Below are positions 2,933 through 27,011 of a stretch of DNA of 27,011 bases, piece by piece. Origin of the DNA: a virus; the IMG/VR virus record IMGVR_UViG_3300013947_000112, positions 1-27,011 of that record; one strand, written 5' to 3'. A program made the translations under genes and the position numbers. How positions within the stretch are numbered: the first letter of the stretch is position 1; the number at the start of each line of letters is the position of its first letter. The notes under the pieces were generated by a model. The model saw only the letters and a program-made list of their open reading frames with translations, was not told the origin of the DNA and did no database searches.

Positions 2933-3026
2933 TATAACTAAAACATCCAAAAGTTCAGAGTTTTTTTGTTTCTCTCTATATAGATAATCATAAAAAAACT
3001 CTGAAGTTTTGGATGTTTTAGTTATA
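2933..3026. repeat. 35-bp inverted repeat (one G:G mismatch) with a 24-nt loop
   Basis: tataactaaaacatccaaaagttcagagttttttt (2933-2967) versus aaaaaaactctgaagttttggatgttttagttata (2992-3026). Lies between the tail and head operons. Confidence 0.9.
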
Positions 3027-3084
3027 ACCATAAACACCCTGTTTTTTGATCTTGTATGTCCTATTCTTTATATTTTTTTCATTA

Positions 3085-3098
3085 CTTATATATTACAG
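3085..3098 (+). promoter_or_regulatory. Class-2 upstream motif cTTATATATTACAG, 20 nt before ATG 3118
   Basis: The 13-mer TTATATATTACAG occurs exactly at 3086, 15271 and 23531. A variant TTATATATTCCTG is at 5781. Each copy is 15-20 nt upstream of the first ATG of an operon. Confidence 0.5.
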
Positions 3099-7207: not shown

Positions 7208-8935
7208 ATGACGGACATTTTACTTATAACTGAACAGAGCATAAAGAACCTGACAAACATCAGTGATAACATGTCGGGCAAGCTTCTTCTTCCTGCCATA
7301 AGGGAGAGCCAGGAGATAAATTTGAGAGAAATCCTTGGTGATGCTCTATTGGATGAACTGAAAAGACAGGTTGAGATTGATGACGTGAGGGAGACATACG
7401 GCAGACTTCTTCTTCAATGTCAATACTATCTTGCATATCAAAGTTGTGCCAATATATGTATGATCACATCAGTGAAGATAGACAATGCAGGTCTTCAAAG
7501 AGTGAGTGATGAGAAGATGGAGCCGTTGCCTGTGAGTGAGGTGAACCAGATACATGACTATTATCAGCAGAAAGCGGACTTCTATTGTGAGAGACTTCAG
7601 CATTTTCTCTTGCAGAATAAAGATGACTATCCCCAGCTGAACACAAGACAGTGCAATGCCATAAACTCAAATCTCTATTCAAGTGCAAGCTGTGGAATAT
7701 TTCTGGGTGGACCGAGAAGCAAGAATGTGGATAAGGGATATGGAGACGGACTGAATTCTTCAAAATCACAGGGGGTTGAGAAACTTGATGTTGAATTGAC
7801 TGAAAACGGCACATATGACTACAAACCGAAAGGATATGGTTATAATGAAGTGAAGGTGAAGGTTGCCACACATGACTTCACTGAAATAGGTTATACCGAT
7901 GAAGAATCTGATGACATGAATGATAAAATAGATAATGATATACAATATAGTAAGTCTTTGCTTGCTGATTATACAAATACGAAAAAGTATGCAGATGACA
8001 CAAAACTTATATATGCTCCTTTATTCCCTACACAGGATAGGATGCAGTTCTCCAATATGTTTGATGGATGTTCTGCTTTGACTTCAGTCTCTGCACTTGA
8101 CACATCAAAAGGGACGAATTTCAGTTATATGTTCAACGGCTGTTCTGCTTTGACTTCAGTCCCTGCACTTGACACATCAAACGGCCTGTATTTCGATTAT
8201 ATGTTCAGCAACTGTTCTGCTTTGACTTCAATTCCTGCACTTGACACATCAAAAGGGACGAATTTCTCCTGTATGTTCAACAACTGTTATACAATAAAAA
8301 AGGTTATACTAAAAAACTTAACCAATGTCAATTGGTTTGATTCAGGGTTTCGAAATTGTTATAAACTGGAAAAGGTTATTGTTGATGGAATCGAAAATAA
8401 TTTTATTTTACCTAATTTACAAACATGTGATAATTTATTTCAGAATACAAAATTGACACATATCAATTTTGTATATGGTAATGATGTAAAAAGTATGAGT
8501 AATACATTTTATCAGTGCGATTTGTTGCAGACTGTTACTGGACTACACACAGAGAATATAACATCATTCAATCAGACTTTTTCAAATGATTATGAACTAA
8601 AAACCATATCAACACTGGATTTTTCATCCGTAACATATTCGCCTTACAGAATGTTTTATATGTTTTATCCACAGAATGCTAAAATGGAACATATAGATAT
8701 AACAGGTAGTATATCATTTTCATGGACTGAAAATTCACCTGGATACTTACCATTACTTGACTATAACACTATCAAAGGATTTCTTGTTGCAATGTCAAAA
8801 TGTTCTAACCCCGATAAAAAAAAGACATTCTCATTCGACAGGACAATTCAAGATCAGAACAATGAACTCACCGATCTTGTTGCTTCTTGCACTGAAAAGG
8901 GATGGACAGTTTCAGGTCTCACTATCACTCAATAA
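7208..8935 (+). CDS. BspA/DUF285-type leucine-rich-repeat fibre protein, paralog 1
   Basis: The track start 7199 is TTG; the first ATG is 7208. Unique N-terminal ~190 aa, one NGTYDYKPKGYGYNEVKVKV unit, then repeated MFxGCSALTSVPALDTSKGTNF LRR units. C-terminus has the conserved cap TIQDQNNELTDLVASCTEKGWTVSGLTI. Confidence 0.75.
   Translation: MTDILLITEQSIKNLTNISDNMSGKLLLPAIRESQEINLREILGDALLDELKRQVEIDDVRETYGRLLLQCQYYLAYQSCANICMITSVKIDNAGLQRVSDEKMEPLPVSEVNQIHDYYQQKADFYCERLQHFLLQNKDDYPQLNTRQCNAINSNLYSSASCGIFLGGPRSKNVDKGYGDGLNSSKSQGVEKLDVELTENGTYDYKPKGYGYNEVKVKVATHDFTEIGYTDEESDDMNDKIDNDIQYSKSLLADYTNTKKYADDTKLIYAPLFPTQDRMQFSNMFDGCSALTSVSALDTSKGTNFSYMFNGCSALTSVPALDTSNGLYFDYMFSNCSALTSIPALDTSKGTNFSCMFNNCYTIKKVILKNLTNVNWFDSGFRNCYKLEKVIVDGIENNFILPNLQTCDNLFQNTKLTHINFVYGNDVKSMSNTFYQCDLLQTVTGLHTENITSFNQTFSNDYELKTISTLDFSSVTYSPYRMFYMFYPQNAKMEHIDITGSISFSWTENSPGYLPLLDYNTIKGFLVAMSKCSNPDKKKTFSFDRTIQDQNNELTDLVASCTEKGWTVSGLTITQ
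8057..8272 (+). repeat. Three tandem 72-bp (24-aa LRR) units with near-identical DNA cores
   Basis: Units start at 8057, 8129 and 8201. They share the cores tgttctgctttgacttca and cctgcacttgacacatcaaa. Differences cluster in a few codons. Confidence 0.9.
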
Positions 8936-8951
8936 ACATAATCATTTCACT

Positions 8952-11384
8952 ATGACACTTTTACAAATCACAAATACGATAAAGTCCATTTCACTGGCAC
9001 AACCTAACATACACAGTTTCGTTAATGAGTTTATTGACTTGAACTCATCCGATGCAAAATATTCTGCAATTATTCTTCAACAGATAACACACAGGAGAGA
9101 TAATGACTTCATCTCATATTCTTTTTATCTGGGGTATGCAGACAGACTGAATGAGGACAAATCAAATGAAATAGAAGTCCAGTCCACTGCCATACAGGTG
9201 ATTGACAATATAGTCTATGCACTTGAAAATCACAATCTTGACACTTCTATGGGTGCATATAACACATTCACTCAAAGATTTCTTGCGGAAGCGGCAGGTG
9301 CATATGTTGAACTGAATATAACAGTGCCTGTGGGAGAATGCACTGATGATTTCTCAAAGGAGGAACTCAATGTCAATATTGTGGCAAATGGTGAGTATAA
9401 CTATATTCCTACAGGTCTTGGTTTCTCATCTGTTCATTTGAATGTGGATGTGGCAAAGTTGCAGGACAAGGCACTGAATATCACAAAGAACGGACAATAT
9501 AATGTGAGATTTGACAAGGGTTATTCAGGTCTGGGAAATGTGGATGTGAATGTGGATGTTGATACCCAGTCTTACTATGATCAGGGTTATAGTGCAGGCA
9601 AGACAGAGGGAAAGGCAGAAGGAATTCAGCAGCAGAAGGACAAACTGACAGACATAGAAATCACTGAAAATGGCACATATACCAGAGAAGATGGTTATAA
9701 GTCTGTTGAGGTGAATGTGCCTGCTGATCAAAAACCAGAGACTGAACTGGCAAAGACACTGACTGAAAACAATGCATATGTCTTTACTCCTGATGATGGG
9801 ACTGTCTATAACAAGGTAAATATAACCACTGACATACACCCTACTGAAAAACTTGTGAGAAGATATGTGGAGAACAACACCTATATAATTGACGGTGAGT
9901 ATAACGGGGGTGAAATAACTGTCAATGTTCCTTCTTCTGTCCCTGATTTGAGAGAAACAGAAATTACTCCAGAGACAACTGAACAGATAATTGCACCAGA
10001 TGGTTTTGATGGTTATGACAAGATTACAGTTAAGGGAGTAGATGCCTCCATAGACAGTGATATAACTCCTGAAAACATAAAGTCAGGCGTGAATATTCTG
10101 GGTGTTGAAGGCACTCTTGAAGGAGTTCACAATCAGGATAAGACATGGAATATAACTGAAAATGGAACATACAATTATGGTCATGATGCAGGTTATACAG
10201 GGATTGAATATGTTTCGATTATAGTGAATGTGTCGGATACTTCAACATCAAACAGTCAGTGGACAGGTGTGGTTGATGAAAATGGTCTCACTGAACTTGG
10301 ATGGTCTCAAAATAATATAAATGAACTGAAAAATAATGTCAGGTGGTATAAGTGGAAGAGTCCTGATATGTTTGTTTCGACCTATGACAAATCCCTTGAT
10401 ATAAAGGCCGGTTATTCCAATGACACAGAAATGAAATACCCTAAATATTCTTCAATCATAAAATTGAGAACTGGTATGTTTAATAATTGCACAAGTCTCA
10501 TATCAGTTCCTTTATATGAAATAGACGGAACCACACTATTTTATACTTTTAATGGTTGTTCAAATTTGAGATATGTCCCTGCTTTTGACACGTCAGGAGT
10601 AACTAATTTTAGTTGGATGTTTAATGACTGTAAAAAACTCATATCTGTTCCTTCATTTGATACGGGTCATGCCATAGATTTATATTGTATGTTCAAAGGT
10701 TGCAGTTCATTAATTTCCGTGCCGCAGTTCAACACTATAAATGTGCAGACTTTCAATGACATGTTCAAAGACTGCACCAGTTTGAAAGAACCTCCACAGT
10801 TTAATATAACATCCGCAACAACTCTAGGGAGTATGTTTGAGAACTGCACGGAACTTGAATATGTGTACTTTGTCGGAAATCCTACTAAAATAGAGGAGAT
10901 ATCAAGTATCTGTCGGTCATGTAAGACAATACAGTCATTTCCTTCTCTTTCACTGACCGAATGCACAGGTTTCGAATATGCCTTTTATCAGTGTGATAAT
11001 TTGTTAAGAGTGGGAGAACTGTATGGAAAGAAAGGAAAATTTTATAGCAATATGTTTGAGAACTGCAAAAAATTGAAAGAGATAGGTGGTCTTGACTTGA
11101 CTTCATCACAAGATAATCAATGTATGTTCTTGAAATGCACTTCCTTGACTGACATCACATTTACAGGTTCAATAAATTACAGGATAGATTTCGATTACTG
11201 CCCGGAACTCACCTTTGACAGTATAAAATCAATCCTTACTGCCTGCTCAAAGACAACAAACACAAACCCAAAGACAGTATTTTTTAAGAGGACAATTCAA
11301 GATCAGAACAATGAACTGACCAATCTTGTTGTTTCTTGCACTGAAAAGGGATGGACAGTTTCTGGATTGACCATCTCTGCATAA
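8952..11384 (+). CDS. BspA/DUF285-type LRR fibre protein, paralog 2 (810 aa)
   Basis: ATG 8952 (MTLLQITN) is preferred; track start 8757 would overlap paralog 1 by 179 nt. About 8 NGxYxxxxxGYxxVxVNV units, then the linker WTGVVDENGLTELGW, about 10 LRR units (FDTSGVTNFSWMFNDCKKLISVP) and the same C-terminal cap. Confidence 0.75.
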   Translation: MTLLQITNTIKSISLAQPNIHSFVNEFIDLNSSDAKYSAIILQQITHRRDNDFISYSFYLGYADRLNEDKSNEIEVQSTAIQVIDNIVYALENHNLDTSMGAYNTFTQRFLAEAAGAYVELNITVPVGECTDDFSKEELNVNIVANGEYNYIPTGLGFSSVHLNVDVAKLQDKALNITKNGQYNVRFDKGYSGLGNVDVNVDVDTQSYYDQGYSAGKTEGKAEGIQQQKDKLTDIEITENGTYTREDGYKSVEVNVPADQKPETELAKTLTENNAYVFTPDDGTVYNKVNITTDIHPTEKLVRRYVENNTYIIDGEYNGGEITVNVPSSVPDLRETEITPETTEQIIAPDGFDGYDKITVKGVDASIDSDITPENIKSGVNILGVEGTLEGVHNQDKTWNITENGTYNYGHDAGYTGIEYVSIIVNVSDTSTSNSQWTGVVDENGLTELGWSQNNINELKNNVRWYKWKSPDMFVSTYDKSLDIKAGYSNDTEMKYPKYSSIIKLRTGMFNNCTSLISVPLYEIDGTTLFYTFNGCSNLRYVPAFDTSGVTNFSWMFNDCKKLISVPSFDTGHAIDLYCMFKGCSSLISVPQFNTINVQTFNDMFKDCTSLKEPPQFNITSATTLGSMFENCTELEYVYFVGNPTKIEEISSICRSCKTIQSFPSLSLTECTGFEYAFYQCDNLLRVGELYGKKGKFYSNMFENCKKLKEIGGLDLTSSQDNQCMFLKCTSLTDITFTGSINYRIDFDYCPELTFDSIKSILTACSKTTNTNPKTVFFKRTIQDQNNELTNLVVSCTEKGWTVSGLTISA

Positions 11385-11464: not shown

Positions 11465-11926
11465 TTATGAAAAAAAGTTTTTGAACTTCATTATCAAATA
11501 TAACAAAATCAATAAATTGACACCCAGACTATACCACACCCACTTGGGAATGTATCTCACAGGTTTCTCAACTTCAACAGGTATTTCCTTATTTATGATC
11601 CTGTCCTTATACACAATCCTGTCCTTATACACAATCCTGCTCTTCACAGGTATGGTGTCCTTCTGTGTCAGTGTGCCTTTCAATGTGTGTGTGAGAGTAT
11701 CGACAAAAGAAATAGATTTTGCATATGTAGAATTCAAGACCAGTGTGTCATAAGCCGGAACCACATCAACCACTCTCTCTTTATTTATATAGGACACCAC
11801 CACACTGTCCCTCAACACCACACTGTCCCTCACATTCACTGTCTCCTTATTCTCCACAGGGACATACTTCACAGTTCCACACGAGACGGAGAACAACATC
11901 AAAATCAATATAATCAGTTTCTTCAT
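11465..11926 (-). CDS. Lipoprotein with a C-terminal TM helix (u-spanin-like topology, or an exclusion/moron lipoprotein)
   Basis: MKKLIILILMLFSVSC has a signal peptide with a lipobox-like Cys16. C-terminal WVWYSLGVNLLILLYLIM is followed by KFKNFFS. Internal repeats VRDSVV x2 and RIVYKD x2. It is the only convincing minus-strand gene. Confidence 0.6.
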   Translation of the reverse strand: MKKLIILILMLFSVSCGTVKYVPVENKETVNVRDSVVLRDSVVVSYINKERVVDVVPAYDTLVLNSTYAKSISFVDTLTHTLKGTLTQKDTIPVKSRIVYKDRIVYKDRIINKEIPVEVEKPVRYIPKWVWYSLGVNLLILLYLIMKFKNFFS

Positions 11927-12173
11927 TTTCTGTGCAGTGTTTTCATTTTTATCCCTATGCAGTCAAGCAGAAAGTCAAGTTTGTCATTGTCCTTCTTAAT
12001 AAAGTAAGATGGTCTCAGTCTCATCTCCCTTATGGACAACTCCTTCTGCCATTCAGTGTATTGTCTGTTTATTTCTTCAACCATATATTGATGTCCATAG
12101 TGTATTTATGTGAAAATATAAAAATCCCTTTTGTATCTCACGACAGAAAAGGGAAAGAAATATGAAAAATCTT

Positions 12174-12215
12174 TGTTATCTTTATAAATGTATGGGATCA
12201 AAAAAAAAAATGAAA
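12174..12215 (+). promoter_or_regulatory. Class-1 promoter-like module, copy a (TGTTATCTTTATAAATGTATGGGATC-A11-TGAAA)
   Basis: The 40 nt at 12176-12215 are identical to 12424-12463. The core TTATCTTTATAAAT recurs at 14412. Confidence 0.45.
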
Positions 12216-12394
12216 TTTGAACTCTCATAAATATAGTATGGCACAGTTATTGCAGTGTCATATATGAAGAATAATGATTGATTTGATGTCTCACTCCACA
12301 ATATGACAGATGATCAATGAGAAATATACAAGTTCAGTCTTTTCGAAACGGAAGTGGAGTGCCGGAGTAGAAAGATTGAACTTTTTTGTTTTGA
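12216..12394 (+). ncRNA. Candidate small non-coding transcript between promoter-like copy a and a + strand terminator
   Basis: The longest ATG ORFs here are 6-9 codons. It is bounded upstream by the duplicated module and downstream by a hairpin plus T-run at 12331-12394. Confidence 0.35.
12331..12394 (+). terminator. Intrinsic terminator-like hairpin
   Basis: agttcagtcttt (12331-12342) pairs with aaagattgaact (12371-12382). One G.U works only on the + strand. Followed by ttttttgtttt. The 28-nt loop is large for a terminator. Confidence 0.5.
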
Positions 12395-12423
12395 ATATAA
12401 TAAAAATTTAGTAATATGTATAA

Positions 12424-12463
12424 TTATCTTTATAAATGTATGGGATCAAAAAAAAAAATGAAA
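12424..12463 (+). promoter_or_regulatory. Class-1 promoter-like module, copy b
   Basis: Identical 40-mer to 12176-12215. About 28 nt of weaker similarity follows (ctcAcataaatata). Confidence 0.45.
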
Positions 12464-12503
12464 AATGATCTCACATAAATATATAGTAATAAGTTTATTT
12501 TAT

Positions 12504-12848
12504 ATGGAAATTACAGAAAAGACTATAAGTGATCTCATTCACAAGTGGGTGGAGATAAAGAAGAAGGACAGGGAATTCAATGAATTCTTTATGAAGTATA
12601 TGACAAGAAATGGAAAGGTAATGATATACACAGAAGAATTGGATTATGTAATTAAAATATCCTCACAAAAACTTGTATATAAAGTGAATCAAAATGATCT
12701 GAAATCAAAATATCCTGAAATATACAAGGAACTGCAAAATAACAATCTGAAATCAAAATATCCTGAAATATACAATGATTTGAAGGAACTTTATCTGAAA
12801 TCTTCTTCTGTAAGTCTAAAAAAATGTAAAAAAAAACAACAACCATAA
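12504..12848 (+). CDS. Hypothetical Lys-rich protein with an internal 16-aa tandem repeat
   Basis: The ORF is open from ATG 12465; ATG 12504 (MEITEKT) is the alternative if transcription starts after the upstream module. A perfect 31-nt direct repeat at 12697-12727 and 12745-12775 encodes LKSKYPEIY twice. Confidence 0.4.
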   Translation: MEITEKTISDLIHKWVEIKKKDREFNEFFMKYMTRNGKVMIYTEELDYVIKISSQKLVYKVNQNDLKSKYPEIYKELQNNNLKSKYPEIYNDLKELYLKSSSVSLKKCKKKQQP

Positions 12849-13045
12849 ATAAAGTGATGGACATTTTATGATTTTGATGTTTGTTATATTTATATGTAGA
12901 ATATGAAAAGACTGTCAAGAAAGTTTGGCACACTTTTTGTATATAAGTAAGTAAAAAACTGCTGGCAAGGTCATAAACCTTACTCAAACAGGGAAATCAC
13001 GATGAAAAAGTTTAGAACCTGTTTTTGCCGTAAATGAAACCATAG

Positions 13046-13308
13046 GGACATTATCGGGGCCAGAAATCCACAGTTTATAAAGTTCTATGAAATACACACT
13101 GTCTCACCGGCTGAGTTTATGAGCTAAGGGGGAGTGAGATCATAGCACCTGATAAGGCTATGCGGGAATAATCAAGACCATTGTGTGTATTGAAACGAGA
13201 ATGAGTTCTGTGGAAGGAGAAAGAGAAAGGATAACAAGTCCTTTTGAAAGTCCGGGTGAGACTGGATTTAGAAATTTTCTTCAAAAACTCTATGGGATTT
13301 CTGTGTCC
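13046..13308. ncRNA. Candidate structured RNA, ~260 nt, with nested long-range helices (strand unresolved)
   Basis: Nested pairings: ggaca 13046-50 / tgtcc 13304-08; cagaaatcc 13061-69 / ggatttctg 13295-303; gtctcaccgg 13101-10 / ccgGgtgagac 13252-62 (1-nt bulge); catagc 13141-46 / gctatg 13157-62. An extra 9-bp pairing 13091-99 / 13183-91 crosses these. All three stop codons occur in the frame I translated. Confidence 0.4.
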
Positions 13309-13399
13309 AATTCGTAGATAAAGATATTATATAAAGAAATAAAAAAGAATAATATAAATAAGTTCTTTATAAATAAATTTATTGATAAAAAGAATGTTA

Positions 13400-13497
13400 G
13401 GACATAAAGTCCAAGAGGTTTCTGCTTGTGTTTGAGATTTCACTACGTTCAATCTCACCGCTTAGCTGCTTCGCTGCTTCGCTAACACAACAGAAAC
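13400..13497. other. Structured module A
   Basis: ggac-ATAAA-gtcc (13400-12), then aagag. A 14-bp stem with a 1-nt bulge (13418-32 / 13484-97) encloses hairpin tgagatt/aatctca (13433-39 / 13451-57) and a tandem gctgcttc x2 (13465-80). Confidence 0.5.
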
Positions 13498-13701
13498 ATA
13501 TAAACGGAAAAAGAGAAATATTAGATAATCGCGCATGCGAGGCGAGGCCAGAAGTGTAAGGTATAAGAGACTGTCTGTTCTTTGAATGGATAGTCTTTCA
13601 CTGTATCATATAGTGTTATACTAAATAAAAAAGGTGTTATACAGAATTCTCTTATATAGACTGATAAGAATGATGTTATACTTATAGAGAATTCTATGTA
13701 A

Positions 13702-13779
13702 TGACCATAAAGGTCAAAGGACAATCCTTATTCCGCTCCTACGGAGTTTGTTCGCTTCGCTCACCTACATAAGGATTGT
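13702..13779. other. Structured module B (same architecture as A, different stem sequences)
   Basis: tgacc-ATAAA-ggtca (13702-16), then aagg. An 11-bp stem acaatccttat/ataaggattgt (13721-31 / 13769-79) encloses hairpin ctcc-tac-ggag (13736-46) and ttcgcttcgct (13751-61). Confidence 0.5.
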
Positions 13780-13918
13780 ATCTTATTGAACTTGTTGTAT
13801 AAGAATTTGATGTAAAAGTCTTTCATAGTCTGTTATAGAAAAGTTTATTTTATAAAAAGAAAGATTTTTATATATAATAGATGCTCATAAGTAAAAAGAC
13901 TACTATGGAAGTCTTTAT

Positions 13919-13958
13919 ACAGGATAAGATCCCCCAAGCCCTTATCCTGTTTTTTTTT
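13919..13958 (+). terminator. Intrinsic terminator inside the non-coding region
   Basis: acaggataag (13919-28) / cttatcctgt (13941-50), 12-nt loop, T9 tail. No ORF lies upstream, so it would end a non-coding + strand transcript. Confidence 0.7.
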
Positions 13959-14254
13959 ATCAACTCACTTCTGTTATTCAAAGAAAGACTGTCTCTCACT
14001 TCTGTTATAAAAGACAAACAACAATCTATAATTCCTGTTATTTCACTCATATAAGGGTATTACAGACACTTTCTCTTATTCAACCTATAATTATACCACC
14101 CCACCCTTATAAGCTCAAATAAACCCACTATGGTTATGAAATACAGGGTGTCCCTCACTTCTCTGTTATAGAGAATTATATTTTGTTCCTGATCTTTATT
14201 TCATAAGCAAAAAGTCTGTTATTCAACTCATTTCTGTTATTCAAAGAAAGACTG

Positions 14255-14358
14255 TTATTTGATGGATGGGGTGGTCTAAAATCAACTTATAGACCTTGAC
14301 TGGTATAATCCTACATTTCACTCCTATAAGTGTCTAAAAACCCACCATAATCACTAAA
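14255..14358 (+). repeat. 104-bp direct repeat, copy 1
   Basis: 101 of 104 identical to 15104-15207 by manual alignment. A degenerate partial copy lies at about 14041-14153. Confidence 0.9.
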
Positions 14359-14400
14359 TACAGGGTGTCTCATACAGGGTGTCTCATACAGGGATGTCTC
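14358..14400 (+). repeat. Tandem ATACAGGG(A)TGTCTC x3
   Basis: Units at 14358-71, 14372-85 and 14386-400. A single related copy atacagggtgtccc is at 14141-54. Each block is followed by tcacttctctgttat. Confidence 0.9.
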
Positions 14401-14409
14401 TCACTTCTC

Positions 14410-14425
14410 TGTTATCTTTATAAAT
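14410..14425 (+). promoter_or_regulatory. Class-1 motif copy c (TGTTATCTTTATAAAT), 22 nt before ATG 14447
   Basis: The 16-mer is identical to 12174-12189. Confidence 0.45.
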
Positions 14426-14446
14426 ACATAAAATAAAGAACTTGCT

Positions 14447-15082
14447 ATGAAAATAACCAGTATAGACTTTTCACTTGTCAGTCCAGCCATAACCAACTAT
14501 AATTCAACCACCCACACCTATGACTTCGTCTCATTCACTGCTGTCCCTACCTATCACTCATATGAGACATCAAAGAAATTCCAGACACACAGATCAATCT
14601 CACCTTATATAACCATAGTCCCTTATGTCCGTTCCATAGACAAATCCACCTACCAGACCACAGAGGAGACAAAAGTCCTTGATGCAATGTCCCTGTCTAA
14701 TCTCATAATCCACAAGATCAATGAATTTCACCCCGACATAGTAGCTATTGAAGGGTATAGTTTCGCATCACATTCCGCAAGCTATATTGATCTTGTCTCC
14801 TATCAGTCCATTCTCCGCTCACAGATAAAGAAATATGGTTATCCTTTGTATGTCATCTCACCCAGTCAAGGCAAAATGGCACTGTCCGGTAAAGGCAATG
14901 CAGACAAGATGACACAAATTCATTCATTTATTGAGAACAGGCCAGACATACCTTATATAGAAGAGAATTCATTATGGTGGTTTCTTCAAAGTTATATGAT
15001 CAATGAGAATAAACTCAAACCTGTTGATGATATTGTTGACTCTGTGGGAGTTCTTTTGTCAAGTCTCAAACACATTCAATAA
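14447..15082 (+). CDS. RuvC-like Holliday-junction resolvase (211 aa)
   Basis: MKITSIDFS (Asp7), VAIEGYSF (Glu102), ISPSQGKMALSGKGNADK (matches the RuvC p..vK....G.G.A.K pattern) and VDDIVDSVGV (D..D) line up with the four RuvC catalytic acidic positions. Confidence 0.7.
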   Translation: MKITSIDFSLVSPAITNYNSTTHTYDFVSFTAVPTYHSYETSKKFQTHRSISPYITIVPYVRSIDKSTYQTTEETKVLDAMSLSNLIIHKINEFHPDIVAIEGYSFASHSASYIDLVSYQSILRSQIKKYGYPLYVISPSQGKMALSGKGNADKMTQIHSFIENRPDIPYIEENSLWWFLQSYMINENKLKPVDDIVDSVGVLLSSLKHIQ

Positions 15083-15103
15083 AACCCTGTTACTGGAAGT
15101 CCC

Positions 15104-15207
15104 TTATTTGATGGATGGGGTGGTCTAAAATCAACTTATAGACCCTTACTGGTATAATCCTACCTTTCACTCCTATAAGTGTCTAAAAACCCACCATAAT
15201 CACTAAA
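15104..15207 (+). repeat. 104-bp direct repeat, copy 2
   Basis: See 14255-14358. The copies are 849 bp apart and bracket the resolvase gene. Confidence 0.9.
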
Positions 15208-15264: not shown

Positions 15265-15270
15265 CCACAA

Positions 15271-15283
15271 TTATATATTACAG
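15271..15283 (+). promoter_or_regulatory. Class-2 motif TTATATATTACAG, 18 nt before ATG 15301
   Basis: Exact 13-mer shared with 3086 and 23531. Confidence 0.5.
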
Positions 15284-16657: not shown

Positions 16658-18103
16658 ATGTTTATAAGCTTAGCAAAGATTGATTTATCTGGGACACAAG
16701 GTGGTGGCAGTGCAAAACTTCAGGAGAAGACCGCTGAAATGCTTCTTACGGAGACACAGATTGATATCGTTCCAGACACAGGATATGATGGAATGTCAAA
16801 GGTTGTTGTTTCCCATGCGCCTGTTCAGGATACGGTTGAACAGACAATAACTGCAAATGGAAGTCATGCAATTACACCGGATACAGGATATGACGCCATG
16901 ATCAACTGTGTGGTTGACGTGAATGTGCCGGAGAAGAATATAGGTACGGGGACTTTCACTACTTCCGCTAATGGTAAGTATCAGGTTAATGCATCCGACA
17001 AGAATCTGGATGGTTTTTCCACTTTGACGGTGTTCGTGAGTGTGCCGGAGAAAGTTTCAGCTTACAGGATACCTAACCAGTGGAATGGATCCGTAGACAC
17101 CGAAGGTCTTACCGCACTCGGGTGGACCACTGACCAGATTTCAAATTATCAGTCCCTTTGCACTTGGATGGACTACGAGAACACAGACCATCTGGTTTCT
17201 GACTACGACAAGAACATAGCGGAATCAAATTCATACAAGGATGACAAATCACTCCAGTACCCGAAGAACCAGGATTTTGAAACCCAAGGGTATACCACAC
17301 TCAATGCAATGTTTCAGGGCTGCACATCATTGAAGACTTTCCCTGCCTTCAACATCCCTGCCACGGTCACAGACATGAACTTAATGTTTGACGGGTGTTC
17401 TTCACTCGAAGTCATCCCTGTATTTTCTTTCGGTTCGAGTGTCACCAACTGTATCAGTATGTTTCAGGGGTGTTCTTCCCTGACCATAGTGCCAAAGATT
17501 GATTTTTCCACTATGCTAAATCTTCAGAATTGTTTTTATAACTGCACATCCTTGAAGTATATTCCGGAGTTTGATTTCTCATCTGCAACGAGACTGGTGG
17601 GTTTCTACGAGGCCACGGGGATAGAGGAGATAGGTAATGTCATCGCGAACAATTGCACAGCTGCCAATTACCTTTTCGCCGAATGTCCAAATTTGAAGAA
17701 AGTCGGCAGGATACATCTGGCTGACACCGCAAATAACAACAAGATGTTCCAGAACGACACTGCACTTGAAAGTGTTGCAGGTTTCTCGTACAGGGGGACA
17801 TACAACAACGGCAATATTTTCACTGTTGAAATGACCAATCTCACCCATTTCATCATGGAGGACTATATAAACTGCACTTGGGACACTGGATTTCTCACAT
17901 ATTGTCCTAATCTTGACTATGAGAGCATAAAGTCTTTCCTTACCGCAATGTCAAACACCACAGTTCCTGACACGGCAAAGTCATTCACATTCAATTCCAC
18001 CATGCAGGACCAGAACAATGAACTTCAAACTCTGGTTGATGACTGTGTGAACAACAAGGGATGGACTATTTCAGGTTTGACCATCACCACAGAGACAGTA
18101 TAG
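16658..18103 (+). CDS. BspA/DUF285-type LRR fibre protein, paralog 3 (481 aa)
   Basis: Three GYDG..V.V..P units, the linker WNGSVDTEGLTALGW, LRR units (MFQGCTSLKTFPAFN, MFDGCSSLEVIPVF and others) and the cap MQDQNNELQTLVDDCVNNKGWTISGLTI. Confidence 0.75.
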   Translation: MFISLAKIDLSGTQGGGSAKLQEKTAEMLLTETQIDIVPDTGYDGMSKVVVSHAPVQDTVEQTITANGSHAITPDTGYDAMINCVVDVNVPEKNIGTGTFTTSANGKYQVNASDKNLDGFSTLTVFVSVPEKVSAYRIPNQWNGSVDTEGLTALGWTTDQISNYQSLCTWMDYENTDHLVSDYDKNIAESNSYKDDKSLQYPKNQDFETQGYTTLNAMFQGCTSLKTFPAFNIPATVTDMNLMFDGCSSLEVIPVFSFGSSVTNCISMFQGCSSLTIVPKIDFSTMLNLQNCFYNCTSLKYIPEFDFSSATRLVGFYEATGIEEIGNVIANNCTAANYLFAECPNLKKVGRIHLADTANNNKMFQNDTALESVAGFSYRGTYNNGNIFTVEMTNLTHFIMEDYINCTWDTGFLTYCPNLDYESIKSFLTAMSNTTVPDTAKSFTFNSTMQDQNNELQTLVDDCVNNKGWTISGLTITTETV

Positions 18104-18829: not shown

Positions 18830-18896
18830 ACTTTGTTATATTTACATTGTTCAAATTATTTCTTTTCAATTCAAATATAAAAACATTTCAGTTTTG

Positions 18897-18932
18897 CAGG
18901 ATGGTCTGTTCTTGACTGTCCTGTTTTTTTTT
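18897..18932 (+). terminator. Intrinsic terminator
   Basis: caggatggtc (18897-906) / gactgtcctg (18914-23), with two G.U pairs valid only on the + strand, followed by T9. Confidence 0.75.
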
Positions 18933-18947
18933 CATAAATACTGTATA
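18927..18947 (+). promoter_or_regulatory. Class-1 motif copy e, 18 nt before ATG 18966
   Basis: The 21-mer is identical to 16071-16091. Confidence 0.45.
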
Positions 18948-18965
18948 TATAATAAAACTATTCAA

Positions 18966-19526
18966 ATGAAAAAACTTGAAATATGGAAATCAATTCCGGG
19001 CTTCCCTAACTATGAGGCATCCACTGAGGGGAGAATAAGACAGGGTGGCACAATACTCTACACCTGCATAAACAATTCCGGATATGAAGTGGTCTGTCTG
19101 TGGAAGAACAATCATAGACATTGTTTCCCTGTCCATAGACTTGTTGCAAAGACATTCATACCAAATCCTTATTCTTATACTGATGTTGATCATATAAATA
19201 ATGACAAGTCAAACAATTCAATAGACAATCTTCAATGGATGAACCACAGGGACAATTGCAGAAAATACTATGATGAGAAGAAATACAGGGACAGGATTTT
19301 ATTGTCAGTTGCACAGGGACATTGGGTGAACATCTATTCAGGCAATTCAACTTCATATCAGGGCACATATACCACACCTATGAACATAACCATAGACTAC
19401 TATTCATTCACAGGCAATCTCATCACAGAACTGTCCAGACTGTCTTCGCTGTTCCCTGATTACATATTTGGTATTCATACTGATGCAGGAAATCTTTATA
19501 TACAAGGAAACAGAAAAGTGAGATGA
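18966..19526 (+). CDS. HNH homing-type endonuclease with an N-terminal NUMOD4-like motif
   Basis: ATG 18966 is preferred over TTG 18894, which lies in the terminator. EIWKSIPGFPNYEASTEGRIR fits NUMOD4. VHRLVAKTFIPNP..VDHINNDKSNNSIDNLQWMNHRDN fits the HNH_3 pattern. Confidence 0.75.
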   Translation: MKKLEIWKSIPGFPNYEASTEGRIRQGGTILYTCINNSGYEVVCLWKNNHRHCFPVHRLVAKTFIPNPYSYTDVDHINNDKSNNSIDNLQWMNHRDNCRKYYDEKKYRDRILLSVAQGHWVNIYSGNSTSYQGTYTTPMNITIDYYSFTGNLITELSRLSSLFPDYIFGIHTDAGNLYIQGNRKVR

Positions 19527-23526: not shown

Positions 23527-23530
23527 TTTC

Positions 23531-23543
23531 TTATATATTACAG
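23531..23543 (+). promoter_or_regulatory. Class-2 motif TTATATATTACAG, 15 nt before ATG 23558
   Basis: Exact 13-mer shared with 3086 and 15271. Confidence 0.5.
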
Positions 23544-23557
23544 ACAAATCAAACACT

Positions 23558-24563: not shown

Positions 24564-27011
24564 ATGAAACAGGAACTTTATATCAACAATCAAAGAGCGG
24601 ACATAAAGGATGACAGTTTGATTTTGTTCACCTATCAACAGAGTGATTACAGTGATCCCACCGCAGTGAAGAATTCATACACGAAGTCTGTCACACTCCC
24701 TGGCACAAAGAATAACTGTAAGATATTCAATGAGATATACAGGTTCGATTATCACCAGAACACCCAGACTTTCAATCCGTCAAAAAGAACACAGTTTGAA
24801 ATATATTCAAATGGAAATTTGCTTGAAAGGGGTTATTTGAAACTGACGAAGATAACTGGACAGGGAGAATACAGGGAGTTTCAGATCTCTCTCTATGGGG
24901 GTCTGGGGGATTTCATGTATAATCTGCAATATGACAGCGACGGAAACAAAATAACGTTATATGACATAGTTTCATATGACTGGGTGGATCTCGACTTCAC
25001 CATAAGCAGGAGTACGGTCAAATCCGCGTGGGACAGGATCAATGGGGACAGGACAGGATACTCAAAGTGGGATTACATCAATTTCGCACCCTGCTATAAT
25101 GGACTTCCTGAACTTGATGGTTTCGACAACAGAAAGATAGCGGTTTATTGTGGCAATTCACTTCCCGCGAAGCCGGGGGTGATGACCGACATATGGATCG
25201 GGGACATAGAACACAATTATCTTATCACTGCATCGGGGGACTACATCACATGGGCAGATGAATACGGAAACAGGTGGGGACTGATTGAAACGGGGGACGG
25301 GATGGATGAATGGGAAGTAGGTGATCACAGGTGTTGGATGCAACGTCCTGTATTTTCGATGAAGTTCCTTTTCAAGATGATAGAGAACTATTTGAAAGAA
25401 AAGGTTGAACCACGTTTCACCATGGATCTGGACAAATCATGGTTTCACGATGACAACCCATACTGGAATGACATCTGGATAACACTTCCCATGTTGTATG
25501 AGAATAATGAAGATGTGAAATCTGGAGACACCATAAACCACAAGACTTTGTTCGGCAGTTCAAAGACACCTTATGAATATCTCATCTCATATACCAAGTC
25601 ATTTTCGCTCTGGTATGATTATGATCCGTTTACAAGGACGTTGAAAATAACACCGAGATACAGTTTTTACAGTTCCGACTTGAAAGACATCTCCGGAAAG
25701 ATAGACATGTCCGATATCAAGATAACCCCATTGGCTTTCTCTTTCAGGACACTAAAATATGACTGGAAGGAGGGTGAAGACAGGATTAGCGGAGAATACA
25801 AGAAGAAGACGGGAGAAGATTATGGTGTGTACGGTATAGACACCGGATGGGAATTCGACAACTCTTCAAAGACCGTGCCGTCAAACCAGATAATGAAGAA
25901 CACGGTGGATGTGAGAAGGTCCGGACCGTATTTCTCGACATATCAGCTGGTATATGATGACAAGGTGGACAATCTTGACAGGACATATGAAATCATGCCG
26001 TCATGGTTGAAACAGAATGATATCAAATACACACTCTGGAACAAGAACAACACGGAAGACACTCTTGTTATAGGTGATCTGCATCCTGCCGTGTATGCGA
26101 AGATAACCATGACTCTCGCTTCGGCATATATGAAAAAAGGAACACAGGAAGGGGACAAGGACATGGATGGTGCAGCGAAACCGGTATTCTCCAACACCGA
26201 CAACAAATCCGTGGACGGCTCAGATGTCTTTCTTCTCTATACGGGAAAAAACACGGCACCGAGATGGGACAAGATAAGTGATTATTCCACATATGACATA
26301 GCATATAACGTGAATTACATAACCGATGACATAGAAGGTTTCGAAAATCTCACAGACGGAAAAAGATGTTGGATAAACACCGTTCTTCCGGTCTGGGCGG
26401 CAGGTGTGTGTCCATATGCGACATCGGCGGAATTCCCTAAATTCAACAGGATGCAGATAGGAAACAGAGTGGACTGGTCTCTTGATTTCGGCAAGCCCGC
26501 ACAGACCTATGTGTATCCGGATTTGGGTTATTCTGAGATCAACACCATCTCAAGGAAAACATTTCTTGATGAATATCTGGCCGATCTCTACAGTGTCGAT
26601 ACCAGACTTGTTGAGACGAAGATGAGAATTGAAGATCCGTATGCCGTCATGCACACCATGTTTTATTTCGGGGGATGCGTGTGGGTGATAAACAAGATGA
26701 CGGACTTCAACTATGAGAACAATCTCACCAAGGTTGAATTCATAAAAGTGAATGATGTCAACTCGTATGTGCTTCCTTTTCCTGATTTTGACGATGGAGA
26801 CGACGCTGAAAATCCCATAAGCCTTCGCAGTGGTTCAGGCACATATGTGATGACTTTGGATGAAAAATGTCTTGAATCCATAAACGCATATAAAATATAC
26901 AATGACAATTCATGGTTCACAGTTACATCGGGGATTTCATCAGGAGTGCCGAGCATCACAATAAAATATCAGGAGAACACCGGATTGGATGAACGGTCCG
27001 GGTATTTCACA
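24564..27011 (+). CDS. N-terminal and central part of the ~917-aa tail-tip/host-recognition protein (continues at 100..405 across the junction)
   Basis: ATG 24564 is 2 nt after the previous stop. I translated frame 3 to the window end without meeting a stop. It is absent from the ORF track only because it has no stop inside the window. Confidence 0.8.
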   Translation, partial: MKQELYINNQRADIKDDSLILFTYQQSDYSDPTAVKNSYTKSVTLPGTKNNCKIFNEIYRFDYHQNTQTFNPSKRTQFEIYSNGNLLERGYLKLTKITGQGEYREFQISLYGGLGDFMYNLQYDSDGNKITLYDIVSYDWVDLDFTISRSTVKSAWDRINGDRTGYSKWDYINFAPCYNGLPELDGFDNRKIAVYCGNSLPAKPGVMTDIWIGDIEHNYLITASGDYITWADEYGNRWGLIETGDGMDEWEVGDHRCWMQRPVFSMKFLFKMIENYLKEKVEPRFTMDLDKSWFHDDNPYWNDIWITLPMLYENNEDVKSGDTINHKTLFGSSKTPYEYLISYTKSFSLWYDYDPFTRTLKITPRYSFYSSDLKDISGKIDMSDIKITPLAFSFRTLKYDWKEGEDRISGEYKKKTGEDYGVYGIDTGWEFDNSSKTVPSNQIMKNTVDVRRSGPYFSTYQLVYDDKVDNLDRTYEIMPSWLKQNDIKYTLWNKNNTEDTLVIGDLHPAVYAKITMTLASAYMKKGTQEGDKDMDGAAKPVFSNTDNKSVDGSDVFLLYTGKNTAPRWDKISDYSTYDIAYNVNYITDDIEGFENLTDGKRCWINTVLPVWAAGVCPYATSAEFPKFNRMQIGNRVDWSLDFGKPAQTYVYPDLGYSEINTISRKTFLDEYLADLYSVDTRLVETKMRIEDPYAVMHTMFYFGGCVWVINKMTDFNYENNLTKVEFIKVNDVNSYVLPFPDFDDGDDAENPISLRSGSGTYVMTLDEKCLESINAYKIYNDNSWFTVTSGISSGVPSITIKYQENTGLDERSGYFT
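26913..27011. repeat. Second copy of the 99-bp terminal redundancy
   Basis: Identical to 1..99. Confidence 0.95.

Follow-up and report, generated by a model that had tools for sequence, protein, structure and literature searches.

A stretch of 1598 nt without coding capacity (positions 12849-14446, hereafter the island) lies in this phage genome where relatives carry their replication module, and we tentatively interpret it, on a combined reading of the analyses below, as a non-coding occupant of that slot, comprising a host-dependent, possibly transcript-assisted origin together with a regulatory array. The window (the whole 27,011-nucleotide stretch of viral DNA that was analysed) represents a circular genome of 26.9 kb, of which the island is the biggest intergenic gap, amounting to 5.9% of the 26,912-bp unique sequence, as against the share of about 6% originally estimated. 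The original prediction had treated the island as one coherent 1.6-kb element; it is instead a three-piece mosaic, each part of which has its own history.

The absence of genes from the island is borne out. The longest ORF inside it has 67 aa, and no stop-free run of at least 90 codons occurs within it under the standard code or with TAG recoded. Recoding of TGA opens just two minus-strand runs (113-119 codons) at the left edge, which continue into a neighbouring small gene; otherwise, frames open under TAA recoding only, and TAA is the stop codon of the genome's own genes. Each frame of the island contains 32-38 stops (5-8 TAG, 8-15 TGA and 11-20 TAA), so that, as had been argued, reassignment of a single stop codon does not rescue a gene; a recoded gene was rejected on these grounds. 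A pseudogenised replication module was rejected because tblastn of the relatives' VapE, primase, DEAD helicase and 379-aa protein against the island left no remnant (E >=1.9 throughout) and a six-frame Pfam search of the island gave no signal. A 44-aa ORF compared with 1.84 billion representatives found low-complexity matches only. Packing elsewhere is tight, with 95.8% coding density outside 12085-14446, although the predicted spacing of 0-60 nt was slightly overstated, gaps of 380, 218, 187 and 136 nt being present. The features of the island and its flanks are as follows.

12170-12204, plus strand: promoter-like motif TCTTTGTTATCTTTATAAATG, a putative promoter at the start of the plus-strand early operon, in the left flank of the island.
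12418-12452, plus strand: second copy of the TCTTTGTTATCTTTATAAATG-type motif.
12504-12848, plus strand: small gene, left neighbour of the island (114 aa, read from M14 of a 127-aa ORF).
12849-13561, plus strand: piece 1, a strain-specific non-coding cassette and candidate initiator-less origin.
12901-12942, plus strand: hairpin bordered by A- and T-tracts, just past the small gene (dG -12.6 kcal/mol), a possible terminator.
13310-13400, no strand assigned: AT-rich tract (10-11% GC) containing the palindrome AATAAATTTATT.
13418-13497, plus strand: hairpin module A, a 14-bp outer stem enclosing a 7-bp hairpin; GCTTCGCT is repeated three times at 13460-13483.
13562-13959, plus strand: piece 2, a discrete, ORF-free, hairpin-dense unit of ~385 nt that starts at a TATAAG/TATAAT-like box and ends at a terminator.
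13721-13779, plus strand: hairpin module B, an 11-bp outer stem enclosing a CTCC/GGAG hairpin; a GTTCGCTTCGCTC segment is also present.
13919-13958, plus strand: intrinsic terminator, whose 10-bp stem (13919-13950, with a 12-nt loop) is followed by 9 T (dG -12.3 kcal/mol).
13960-14222, plus strand: piece 3a, first copy of a promoter/operator module, with CACTTCTGTTAT-type repeats; mostly absent from the sibling strain L007.
14223-14446, plus strand: piece 3b, the module again (second copy), immediately preceding the RuvC gene.
14275-14366, plus strand: family-conserved element of ~90 nt with TGGTATAAT, ~75% identical in all relatives.
14358-14400, plus strand: three tandem ATACAGGGTGTCTC units.
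14406-14428, plus strand: promoter-like motif.
15097-15207, plus strand: third copy of the conserved element, downstream of the RuvC gene.

The comparison set comprised 30 related contigs. In the relatives, the slot runs from two minus-strand genes to the RuvC gene (RuvC ~70% identical) and holds a replication module, of which we distinguish a VapE/DUF5906 protein with a BT4734/PriCT primase, a DEAD helicase of 926-934 aa, and an HTH protein of 379-383 aa followed by at least two 117-nt tandem repeats. In one contig with the first type (L011), iterons adjoin an A-rich/AT-rich tract within the VapE-primase gap. The 379-aa protein was modelled by AlphaFold with a pLDDT of 72 and gave weak, non-significant Foldseek matches of LAGLIDADG-endonuclease-like and HTH type; it may act either as an initiator or as a homing endonuclease. 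None of the window's proteins matches a replication family; an initiator could be an unrecognised small or novel protein encoded elsewhere in the genome.

Within the clade to which the window belongs, the contents of the slot are exchanged or lost piecemeal. In L001-L003, 12287-13561 is swapped for the 379-aa HTH gene and its 117-nt tandem repeats; L010 lacks 13576-13959; and L007 lacks ~14011-14215 as well as the left promoter motifs and the small gene. These siblings differ by just 0-1% in coding DNA, and unrelated cassettes alternate in this slot among genomes that are otherwise 99-100% identical. Since siblings exist without piece 1, without piece 2 or without one copy of piece 3, the argument that retention of so much non-coding DNA implies function is weak, and from these sequences no single piece appears demonstrably essential.

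The same observations lend themselves to a different reading, in which the island is largely non-functional, consisting of recombination debris and expanding repeats accumulated in a hypervariable hotspot after a module was lost or swapped, with only the RuvC-proximal promoter being needed. We consider this unlikely, though it would explain why the island is the sole place at which these near-identical strains differ (by swaps, deletions, duplications and repeat counts), why every piece is missing from some sibling, and why a 94-nt palindrome that occurs at another place in the genome has an extra copy in the L001 island. It sits less easily with the fact that all strains of the clade, in a 27-kb genome that is 96% coding elsewhere, have retained 0.6-1.6 kb of ORF-free DNA at this position; among them is L007, whose slot holds non-coding DNA only and which was assembled at 894x coverage. 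Piece 1 again speaks for debris, having no homologue in the phage, plasmid, IMG/VR, JGI and GTDB collections and no excess structure in its G-rich half; piece 2 speaks against it, being far more structured than chance (z -6.4) and closing with a clean terminator. Replication must, moreover, start at some point in the genome, and none of its genes can be recognised as a replication gene.

In a sensitive blastn search the island matched none of 50,697 phage records, the ori regions of c2, bIL67 and 923 included, and plasmid blastn was likewise negative; exact 21-23-mers of the island are absent from the IMG/VR, JGI metagenome and GTDB genome sets searched; and retrieval anchored on RuvC, the 379-aa protein and the small gene recovered only near-identical copies of the island. 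The small gene has a 48-nt internal duplication, no family match and one diverged homologue (P0107, encoded on a 4,218-nt Logan contig; 72% identity in the aligned portion, the changes being conservative), and is absent from L001-3 as it is from L007. The TCTTTGTTATCTTTATAAATG-type motif flanks the island at 12173, 12421 and 14409, and in relatives it likewise stands ahead of the early operon and of the RuvC gene (L013:1786 and L013:4909).

Piece 1 has the composition predicted for it at its centre: the very AT-rich tract of ~90 nt is real, with 10-11% GC, and 13310-13400 holds the genome-wide GC minimum in 80-nt windows, making it a candidate DNA-unwinding element. Short GCTTCGCT/GCGAGGC repeats are carried in hairpin modules that flank this AT-rich core, and the number of repeats in module A varies, with a 16-nt deletion in L007. 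The twin hairpin modules originally described (13418-13497 and 13721-13779) are both present, each with GCTTCGCT in its unpaired part. The purine/G-rich stretch of piece 1 contains ~25% G with long G clusters absent, and its fold z-score over 12920-13320 is ~0 on both strands. A host DnaA-dependent origin was rejected because DnaA boxes (TTATCCACA, <=1 mismatch) are absent from 12849-14446; genome-wide, their count is at chance.

The predicted nested long-range structure holds for only part of the island. The segment 13480-13960 folds far better than its shuffles; 12920-13320 does not, and the predicted long-range helix 13537-13549/13745-13757 lacks its 5' arm in L001-L003. With RNA parameters, piece 2 (13568-13960) has fold z-scores of -6.39 (plus strand) and -2.53 (minus strand); DNA parameters give -6.2 (plus) and -4.95 (minus). 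As DNA, both strands thus fold well, and the hairpins could act as DNA rather than as RNA. The plus-strand intrinsic terminator without a gene upstream is confirmed in its essentials (10-bp stem, 9 T, no conserved ORF upstream), and was missed by a simple scan probably because its 12-nt loop exceeds that scan's 3-8-nt limit. All nine copies of piece 2, including that of the window, are identical except in the length of the T-run, which ranges over 9-12 nt among strains (seven aligned sequences, window included); owing to this variation, a 57-aa ORF that crosses the terminator (13881-14054) loses frame. The lack of any substitution in 13562-13960 was rejected as a sign of selective constraint, many genes being equally identical among strains. 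An intrinsic terminator without an upstream ORF, together with a stable fold on the terminator's own strand, is the combination used to recognise a non-coding RNA gene, and piece 2 displays both; we regard it as a candidate non-coding transcript. In L010 and the outgroup L019, ~30 nt stand where piece 2 would be.

These properties also suit a moron-like gene whose non-coding RNA would serve regulation or anti-defence and take no part in replication, the rest of the island being regulatory DNA; the gene could be the full ~385-nt unit, or could comprise just ~75 nt, running from the TATAAT box (13873) as far as the terminator. Piece 2 is a discrete insertion relative to L010 and L019, its boundaries match the promoter-like box and the terminator, its fold signal is strongly strand-asymmetric, and ORFs across it are not kept in frame. 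Against this reading, its inverted repeats, taken as DNA, fold equally well on both strands; piece 2 also has neither an Rfam match nor homologues outside the clade in the collections searched. We judge a moron-like RNA gene rather unlikely as an account of the island.

Piece 3 probably belongs to the regulatory apparatus of the family, across which the ~90-nt element next to the RuvC gene is conserved. The segments 14248-14358 and 15097-15207 form a 111-nt direct repeat (95% identical). The 12 same-orientation TGTTAT sites originally counted are in fact 13 on the plus strand and one on the minus strand; the strong enrichment stands, the frequency elsewhere in the genome predicting 0.57 (Poisson P = 6e-14), and the 7-mer CTGTTAT has nine copies in the same orientation. 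Clusters of CTGTTAT are almost confined to the clade that lacks recognisable replication genes, a pair in L019 being the only instance among other relatives. CTGTTAT is embedded in a promoter-like motif that is also in use among the relatives; the repeat may therefore represent operator sites and not iterons. A sigma-70 promoter scan found promoter-like sites to be no commoner than in shuffles. The absence of Shine-Dalgarno sequences suggests a Bacteroidota host; RuvC relatives in named genomes are ambiguous (Clostridia, Bacilli and Rikenellaceae MAGs, 35-42% identity), which makes our promoter calls uncertain.

The closest functional precedent for an origin of the kind proposed is found in Ceduovirus, in which an ORF-free ori lies between the promoters PE1 and PE2 and a non-coding transcript is made (PMC7150918). 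That ori replicates plasmids without phage proteins, a structured non-coding transcript being implicated, and the genus (c2, bIL67, 923) has several mutually unrelated ori types, which constitute the main variable feature of otherwise conserved genomes (PMC7150918). The island resembles this arrangement in that it is ORF-free, stands where the early genes of a small siphophage (22-27 kb) begin, beside blocks of divergent transcription, and is a slot in which unrelated cassettes are exchanged among strains of near-identical coding DNA. Promoter-like motifs flank it as candidate early promoters, the left ones being absent from L007. The island differs in having no sequence similarity to the Ceduovirus ori, in its probable host phylum (Bacteroidota, not that of Lactococcus) and in its larger size; it also replaces a protein module that relatives keep, and is fused to duplicated promoter/operator arrays.

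Transcription-primed (R-loop) origins include that of ColE1, which uses RNA II, the T7 primary origin, in which promoters are followed by an AT-rich region, and T4 oriF and oriG. The island shares with these a promoter-like element followed by a purine/G-rich stretch running into an AT-rich tract, with no origin-specific initiator protein encoded alongside; the likeness is one of sequence organisation, and is limited by the low G content and the lack of long G clusters noted above. T7 and T4 encode their own replisomes, whereas the phage of the window encodes no recognisable replisome. A likeness to iteron origins is also apparent, with 13 TGTTAT sites (9 of them CTGTTAT), three GCTTCGCT repeats and the AT tract occurring in the same region, and with the sibling slot containing a DNA-binding protein gene followed by the 117-nt tandem repeats. 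Unlike iteron origins, no Rep-like gene lies in the window or beside the repeats in L007, and DnaA boxes are absent.

It is very improbable, in our assessment, that the island represents physical genome ends or entry signals, whether cos, direct terminal repeats or T5-like injection-stop repeats. The island does lie where the fibre/structural block gives way to the first early genes, and is rich in repeats and palindromes; many relatives' contigs also stop in or beside it, but these breaks coincide with 117-nt tandem repeats and strain heterogeneity, either of which is enough to interrupt an assembly. The assembly of the window is circular and was closed at another place, within a 917-aa ORF. 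Sites of pac type are usually found in or near the small terminase gene, and here a small-terminase-like gene adjoins the large terminase gene.

With regard to known RNA families, the original prediction had named ROOL- and GOLLD-type large phage RNAs; the check by Rfam cmscan of the whole window found no match at gathering thresholds, OLE, group I/II introns and CRISPR repeats being among the families tested. At E <=10, cmscan of 12100-14600 gave three matches at chance level (a snoRNA, a microRNA and a Streptococcus sRNA), and a tRNA search with ARAGORN found nothing. The island is like ROOL, GOLLD and HEARO in being long ORF-free phage DNA with hairpin-rich parts, and unlike them in having no credible covariance-model match, in being limited to one near-clonal clade and in not being a single unit. 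That it is one large structured RNA, or a hidden protein gene (recoded, fragmented or a recent replication-module pseudogene), is hardly credible and already largely refuted: its size resembles that of large phage RNAs and the plus-strand GC skew is positive across 12200-13600, as in coding strands, but a third of it is unstructured, its pieces are distributed differently among strains, cmscan, six-frame Pfam and tblastn are negative, stops of all three kinds abound, and the 44-aa ORF has low-complexity matches only.

We therefore return to the reading of the island as a non-coding occupant of the replication slot. Of the candidates originally listed, an origin and a regulatory region are consistent with the slot position, the AT tract, the repeats, the duplicated promoter-like elements and the terminated unit, and it is from these that we infer origin activity. 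The island itself is a composite of three independent pieces. Piece 1 would act as a replication origin without a cognate phage initiator, relying on host functions, and replication could start through transcription through or beside the AT-rich tract, in a manner resembling the c2-type ori and its PE1-T transcript. Piece 2 would specify an accessory non-coding RNA and also insulate the downstream DNA from read-through. Piece 3, a tandem duplication of the family's conserved early promoter/operator element, would drive the RuvC gene, with the CTGTTAT and ACAGGGTGTCTC repeats serving as putative operator sites; the transcription start sites implied by this scheme are likewise predicted. A bolder version, in which a tailed gut phage lineage has lost all recognisable replication proteins, a non-coding RNA-assisted origin is interchangeable with protein modules, and the terminated transcript takes part in initiation or copy control, strikes us as improbable.

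The finding is a reasonable lead for experiment rather than a demonstrated new element. It carries a lesson for the reading of compact phage genomes, in that a big ORF-free gap can be a fast-changing patchwork and not one conserved RNA, and comparison at the strain level should precede any claim of a non-coding RNA. If the island is a working origin, non-coding, host-dependent origins would compete with protein-encoding replication modules for one slot in this family, and the c2-type strategy, known from Lactococcus phages, would extend to an uncultured group of gut phages.

Positions 1–99 and 26913–27011 of the window are identical, and this exact 99-nt terminal overlap gives a circular assembly of 26,912 unique bases; the circle junction lies inside a 917-aa ORF, the relatives' version of which has a faint BACON match. 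The window is a small tailed phage, with identifiable genes for a large terminase, portal, tape-measure-like protein, DUF285 fibres, M15 endolysin, HNH endonuclease and RuvC-like resolvase. No tRNA or tmRNA genes were found in the window, and none of its other proteins matched a replication family. Shine-Dalgarno sequences are missing from most of its genes, suggesting a host like the Bacteroidota.

Several features lie apart from the island. Three DUF285-type fibre genes have a common 3′ end (8821–8935, 11270–11384 and 17977–18024; 77–85% nucleotide identity), as though variable receptor-binding bodies were exchanged on a shared C-terminal module, and 72-nt tandem repeats occupy 8069–8288. 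In some siblings (L003:6146–6823, L010:2791–3468) the endolysin and fibre genes are separated by a GIY-YIG/NUMOD3 homing-endonuclease gene that the window lacks. An HNH/NUMOD4 gene (window 18894–19526) is common to the window and all siblings; the clade is polymorphic for mobile endonuclease genes. The 153-aa product of the minus-strand gene at 11465–11926 carries tandem DRIVYK repeats and a signal of the lipoprotein type (MKKLIILILMLFSVSCG). It is conserved, in the corresponding place, in every relative and may be a lipoprotein that acts in superinfection exclusion or lysis. The motif TTATATATTACAG, a candidate phage promoter element, is found 15–25 nt upstream of three gene starts (3081–3098, 15270–15283 and 23530–23545), and in relatives a variant precedes the gene that follows RuvC. 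A 94-nt near-perfect palindrome (2933–3026; 47-nt arms, 87% complementary) lies in the gap after the tape-measure-like gene, with an additional copy in the non-coding island of a sibling strain (L001:9630–9730) and a variant, judged by eye, at L019:4640–4740; it has the look of a transferable terminator or of a mobile palindromic element.

The island (12849–14446) is the genome's largest gap between genes. It had been described as ORF-free in an otherwise packed genome and beyond rescue by recoding of a single stop codon, and both points hold: its longest ORF is 67 aa, coding density outside the island region is 95.8%, and each frame contains 32–38 stops, of all three kinds. TAG recoding opened no frame, TGA recoding no frame spanning the island, and no Pfam family was matched by its six-frame translations. 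A large phage RNA was among the functions first proposed; Rfam gave no match at gathering thresholds and just three, at chance level, at E ≤ 10. Searches of 50,697 phage records, 72,556 plasmids, IMG/VR, JGI metagenomes and GTDB genomes returned no match to the island.

The island is a mosaic of three pieces (piece 1, 12849–13561; piece 2, 13562–13959; piece 3, 13960–14446).

Features of the island and its right flank (window coordinates)
13418–13497 and 13721–13779: twin hairpin modules, in pieces 1 and 2
13919–13958, plus strand: intrinsic terminator, within piece 2
14275–14366: core element of piece 3, about 90 nt, containing TGGTATAAT
14447–15082, plus strand: RuvC-like resolvase gene, directly right of the island

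Piece 1 is carried only by the window, by L004, which is identical to it, and by the sibling strain L007; three other siblings (L001–3) have a 379-aa gene and repeats in place of 12287–13561. Piece 2, which extends from a TATAAG/TATAAT-like box to the terminator end, has identical copies in eight other contigs (its alignment took in seven sequences, the window included) and is a discrete insertion, since about 30 nt occupy this position in L010 and in the outgroup, L019. Piece 3 is one module in two tandem copies, of which L007 has a single copy, with one ATACAGGGTGTCTC unit versus three in the window. The core element stands beside RuvC in every relative (about 75% conserved); downstream of RuvC the window has a further copy (15097–15207), and L019 has the element in triplicate. 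The RuvC gene lies between the two copies of a 111-nt direct repeat (14248–14358 and 15097–15207; 95% identical); two TGACATTTTGACA repeats follow the downstream copy and ATACAGGGTGTCTC repeats the upstream one, which suggests one promoter scaffold with two different operators. The RuvC gene itself has a strongly negative GC skew (−0.28 to −0.40), the other plus-strand genes being G-rich on the coding strand, and may be of foreign origin or may have been replicated or transcribed differently in its past.

The repetition of TGTTAT in one orientation, noted at first reading, was confirmed, with 13 plus-strand sites in the island against 0.57 expected (P = 6e-14). CTGTTAT belongs to a longer motif, yTGTTATCTTTATAAAT, as its upstream half. 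In the window and relatives alike, that motif stands in front of the early operon and again in front of RuvC, and from this placement it is probably a promoter or operator. CTGTTAT clusters are nearly confined to the clade lacking replication genes; elsewhere among the relatives there is just one pair, in L019.

Comparison with relatives changed the interpretation of the island. Thirty related contigs were retrieved via the RuvC protein, from gut metagenomes (labelled samples, pig or unspecified gut). In those with about 70% identical RuvC, a replication module lies between homologues of the two minus-strand genes (11465–12084) and RuvC. It consists of a small ORF with a VapE/DUF5906 protein and a BT4734/PriCT primase-like protein; of a small ORF with a 926–934-aa DEAD-box helicase; or of a gene for a 379–383-aa protein, in which two HTH motifs are weakly recognisable, and behind it a tandem array of two or more 117-nt repeats, within which assemblies break. 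The last type is accompanied in L027 by DUF3223 and DUF559 genes. In L011, the gap between VapE and primase has TGGTTGC iterons adjoining an A-rich tract, a conventional origin layout. The window retains the early operon start (12156–12435; 70–86% identity to relatives) and diverges beyond it. No translated trace of the relatives' VapE, primase, DEAD helicase or 379-aa proteins was found in the window, and a pseudogenised replication module is very improbable.

The 342–383-aa protein family (L001:7600–8739; P0090–P0103) has no Pfam domain. The AlphaFold model of the 379-aa member is of moderate confidence (pLDDT 72); its only structural matches are clear HTH domains and weak, non-significant ones to LAGLIDADG endonucleases, placed in the family model at two C-terminal HTH motifs and an N-terminal alpha/beta region, respectively. 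Its role may be that of a homing endonuclease or of an initiator that uses the 117-nt repeats; variable presence of the gene among near-identical strains is as expected of the former. To the left of the island, the small gene at 12504–12848 is probably real, the substitutions in its sole diverged homologue (P0107) being conservative; it matched no known family, and L007 can do without it. It contains a 48-nt (16-aa) tandem duplication (12687–12769) that P0107 lacks, in surroundings of about 25% GC, and its promoter-like leader (12424–12483) duplicates 12176–12235.

Our leading, still tentative, explanation is that the island fills the replication slot with non-coding DNA. Piece 1 would be a candidate origin lacking an initiator of its own, with an AT-rich unwinding tract and hairpin and short-repeat modules; piece 2 would be an accessory non-coding transcription unit, and piece 3 an early promoter/operator array, present twice, from which RuvC would be expressed. 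The AT-rich tract (13310–13400) is the genome's lowest-GC 80-nt window, and the terminator and twin hairpins are likewise present as first described. The original observation stands, and its interpretation in part.

That the island is instead mostly functionless, quickly changing debris is doubtful, though it is the hypervariable spot of the genome, with cassette swaps, deletions, duplications and repeat-number changes, and in L001 a gained 94-nt palindrome. GCTTCGCT copy number differs among strains (3 vs 1). The terminator T-run varies too (9–12 nt), so that a 57-aa ORF at 13881–14054 is not kept in frame. The absence of substitutions in piece 2 was discarded as a sign of constraint, because many genes are equally invariant at the 0–1% coding divergence of the clade.

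An ncRNA gene unconnected with replication is unlikely. As to piece 2 itself, the plus-strand RNA of 13568–13960 folds at −106.7 kcal/mol and shuffled versions at −73.0 (z = −6.39); for the minus strand z is −2.53. This asymmetry and the plus-strand terminator together tip the balance towards a plus-strand RNA. Under DNA parameters each strand gives a good fold (z = −6.2 and −4.95), so the hairpins could also act as DNA. The structure originally claimed for the island exceeds chance only at about 13480–13960; 12920–13320 folds at the shuffled level on both strands. Genome ends or entry signals are an improbable account of the island, and one large RNA or hidden coding sequence, given a stop-filled mosaic, a very improbable one.

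The nearest known system to this proposed non-coding slot occupant is the Ceduovirus (c2) origin, with which the island has no sequence homology. That origin is ORF-free, lies between early promoters, gives a non-coding transcript and supports plasmid replication without phage proteins, and several unrelated types occur across otherwise conserved genomes (PMC7150918). Across the L011–L032 family, the slot (homologous to window 12085–14446) has at least four interchangeable occupants, non-coding DNA alone among them; and L007, which lacks both the 379-aa gene and the small gene (12504–12848), reaches 894x assembly coverage, so a genome whose slot is purely non-coding can be abundant.
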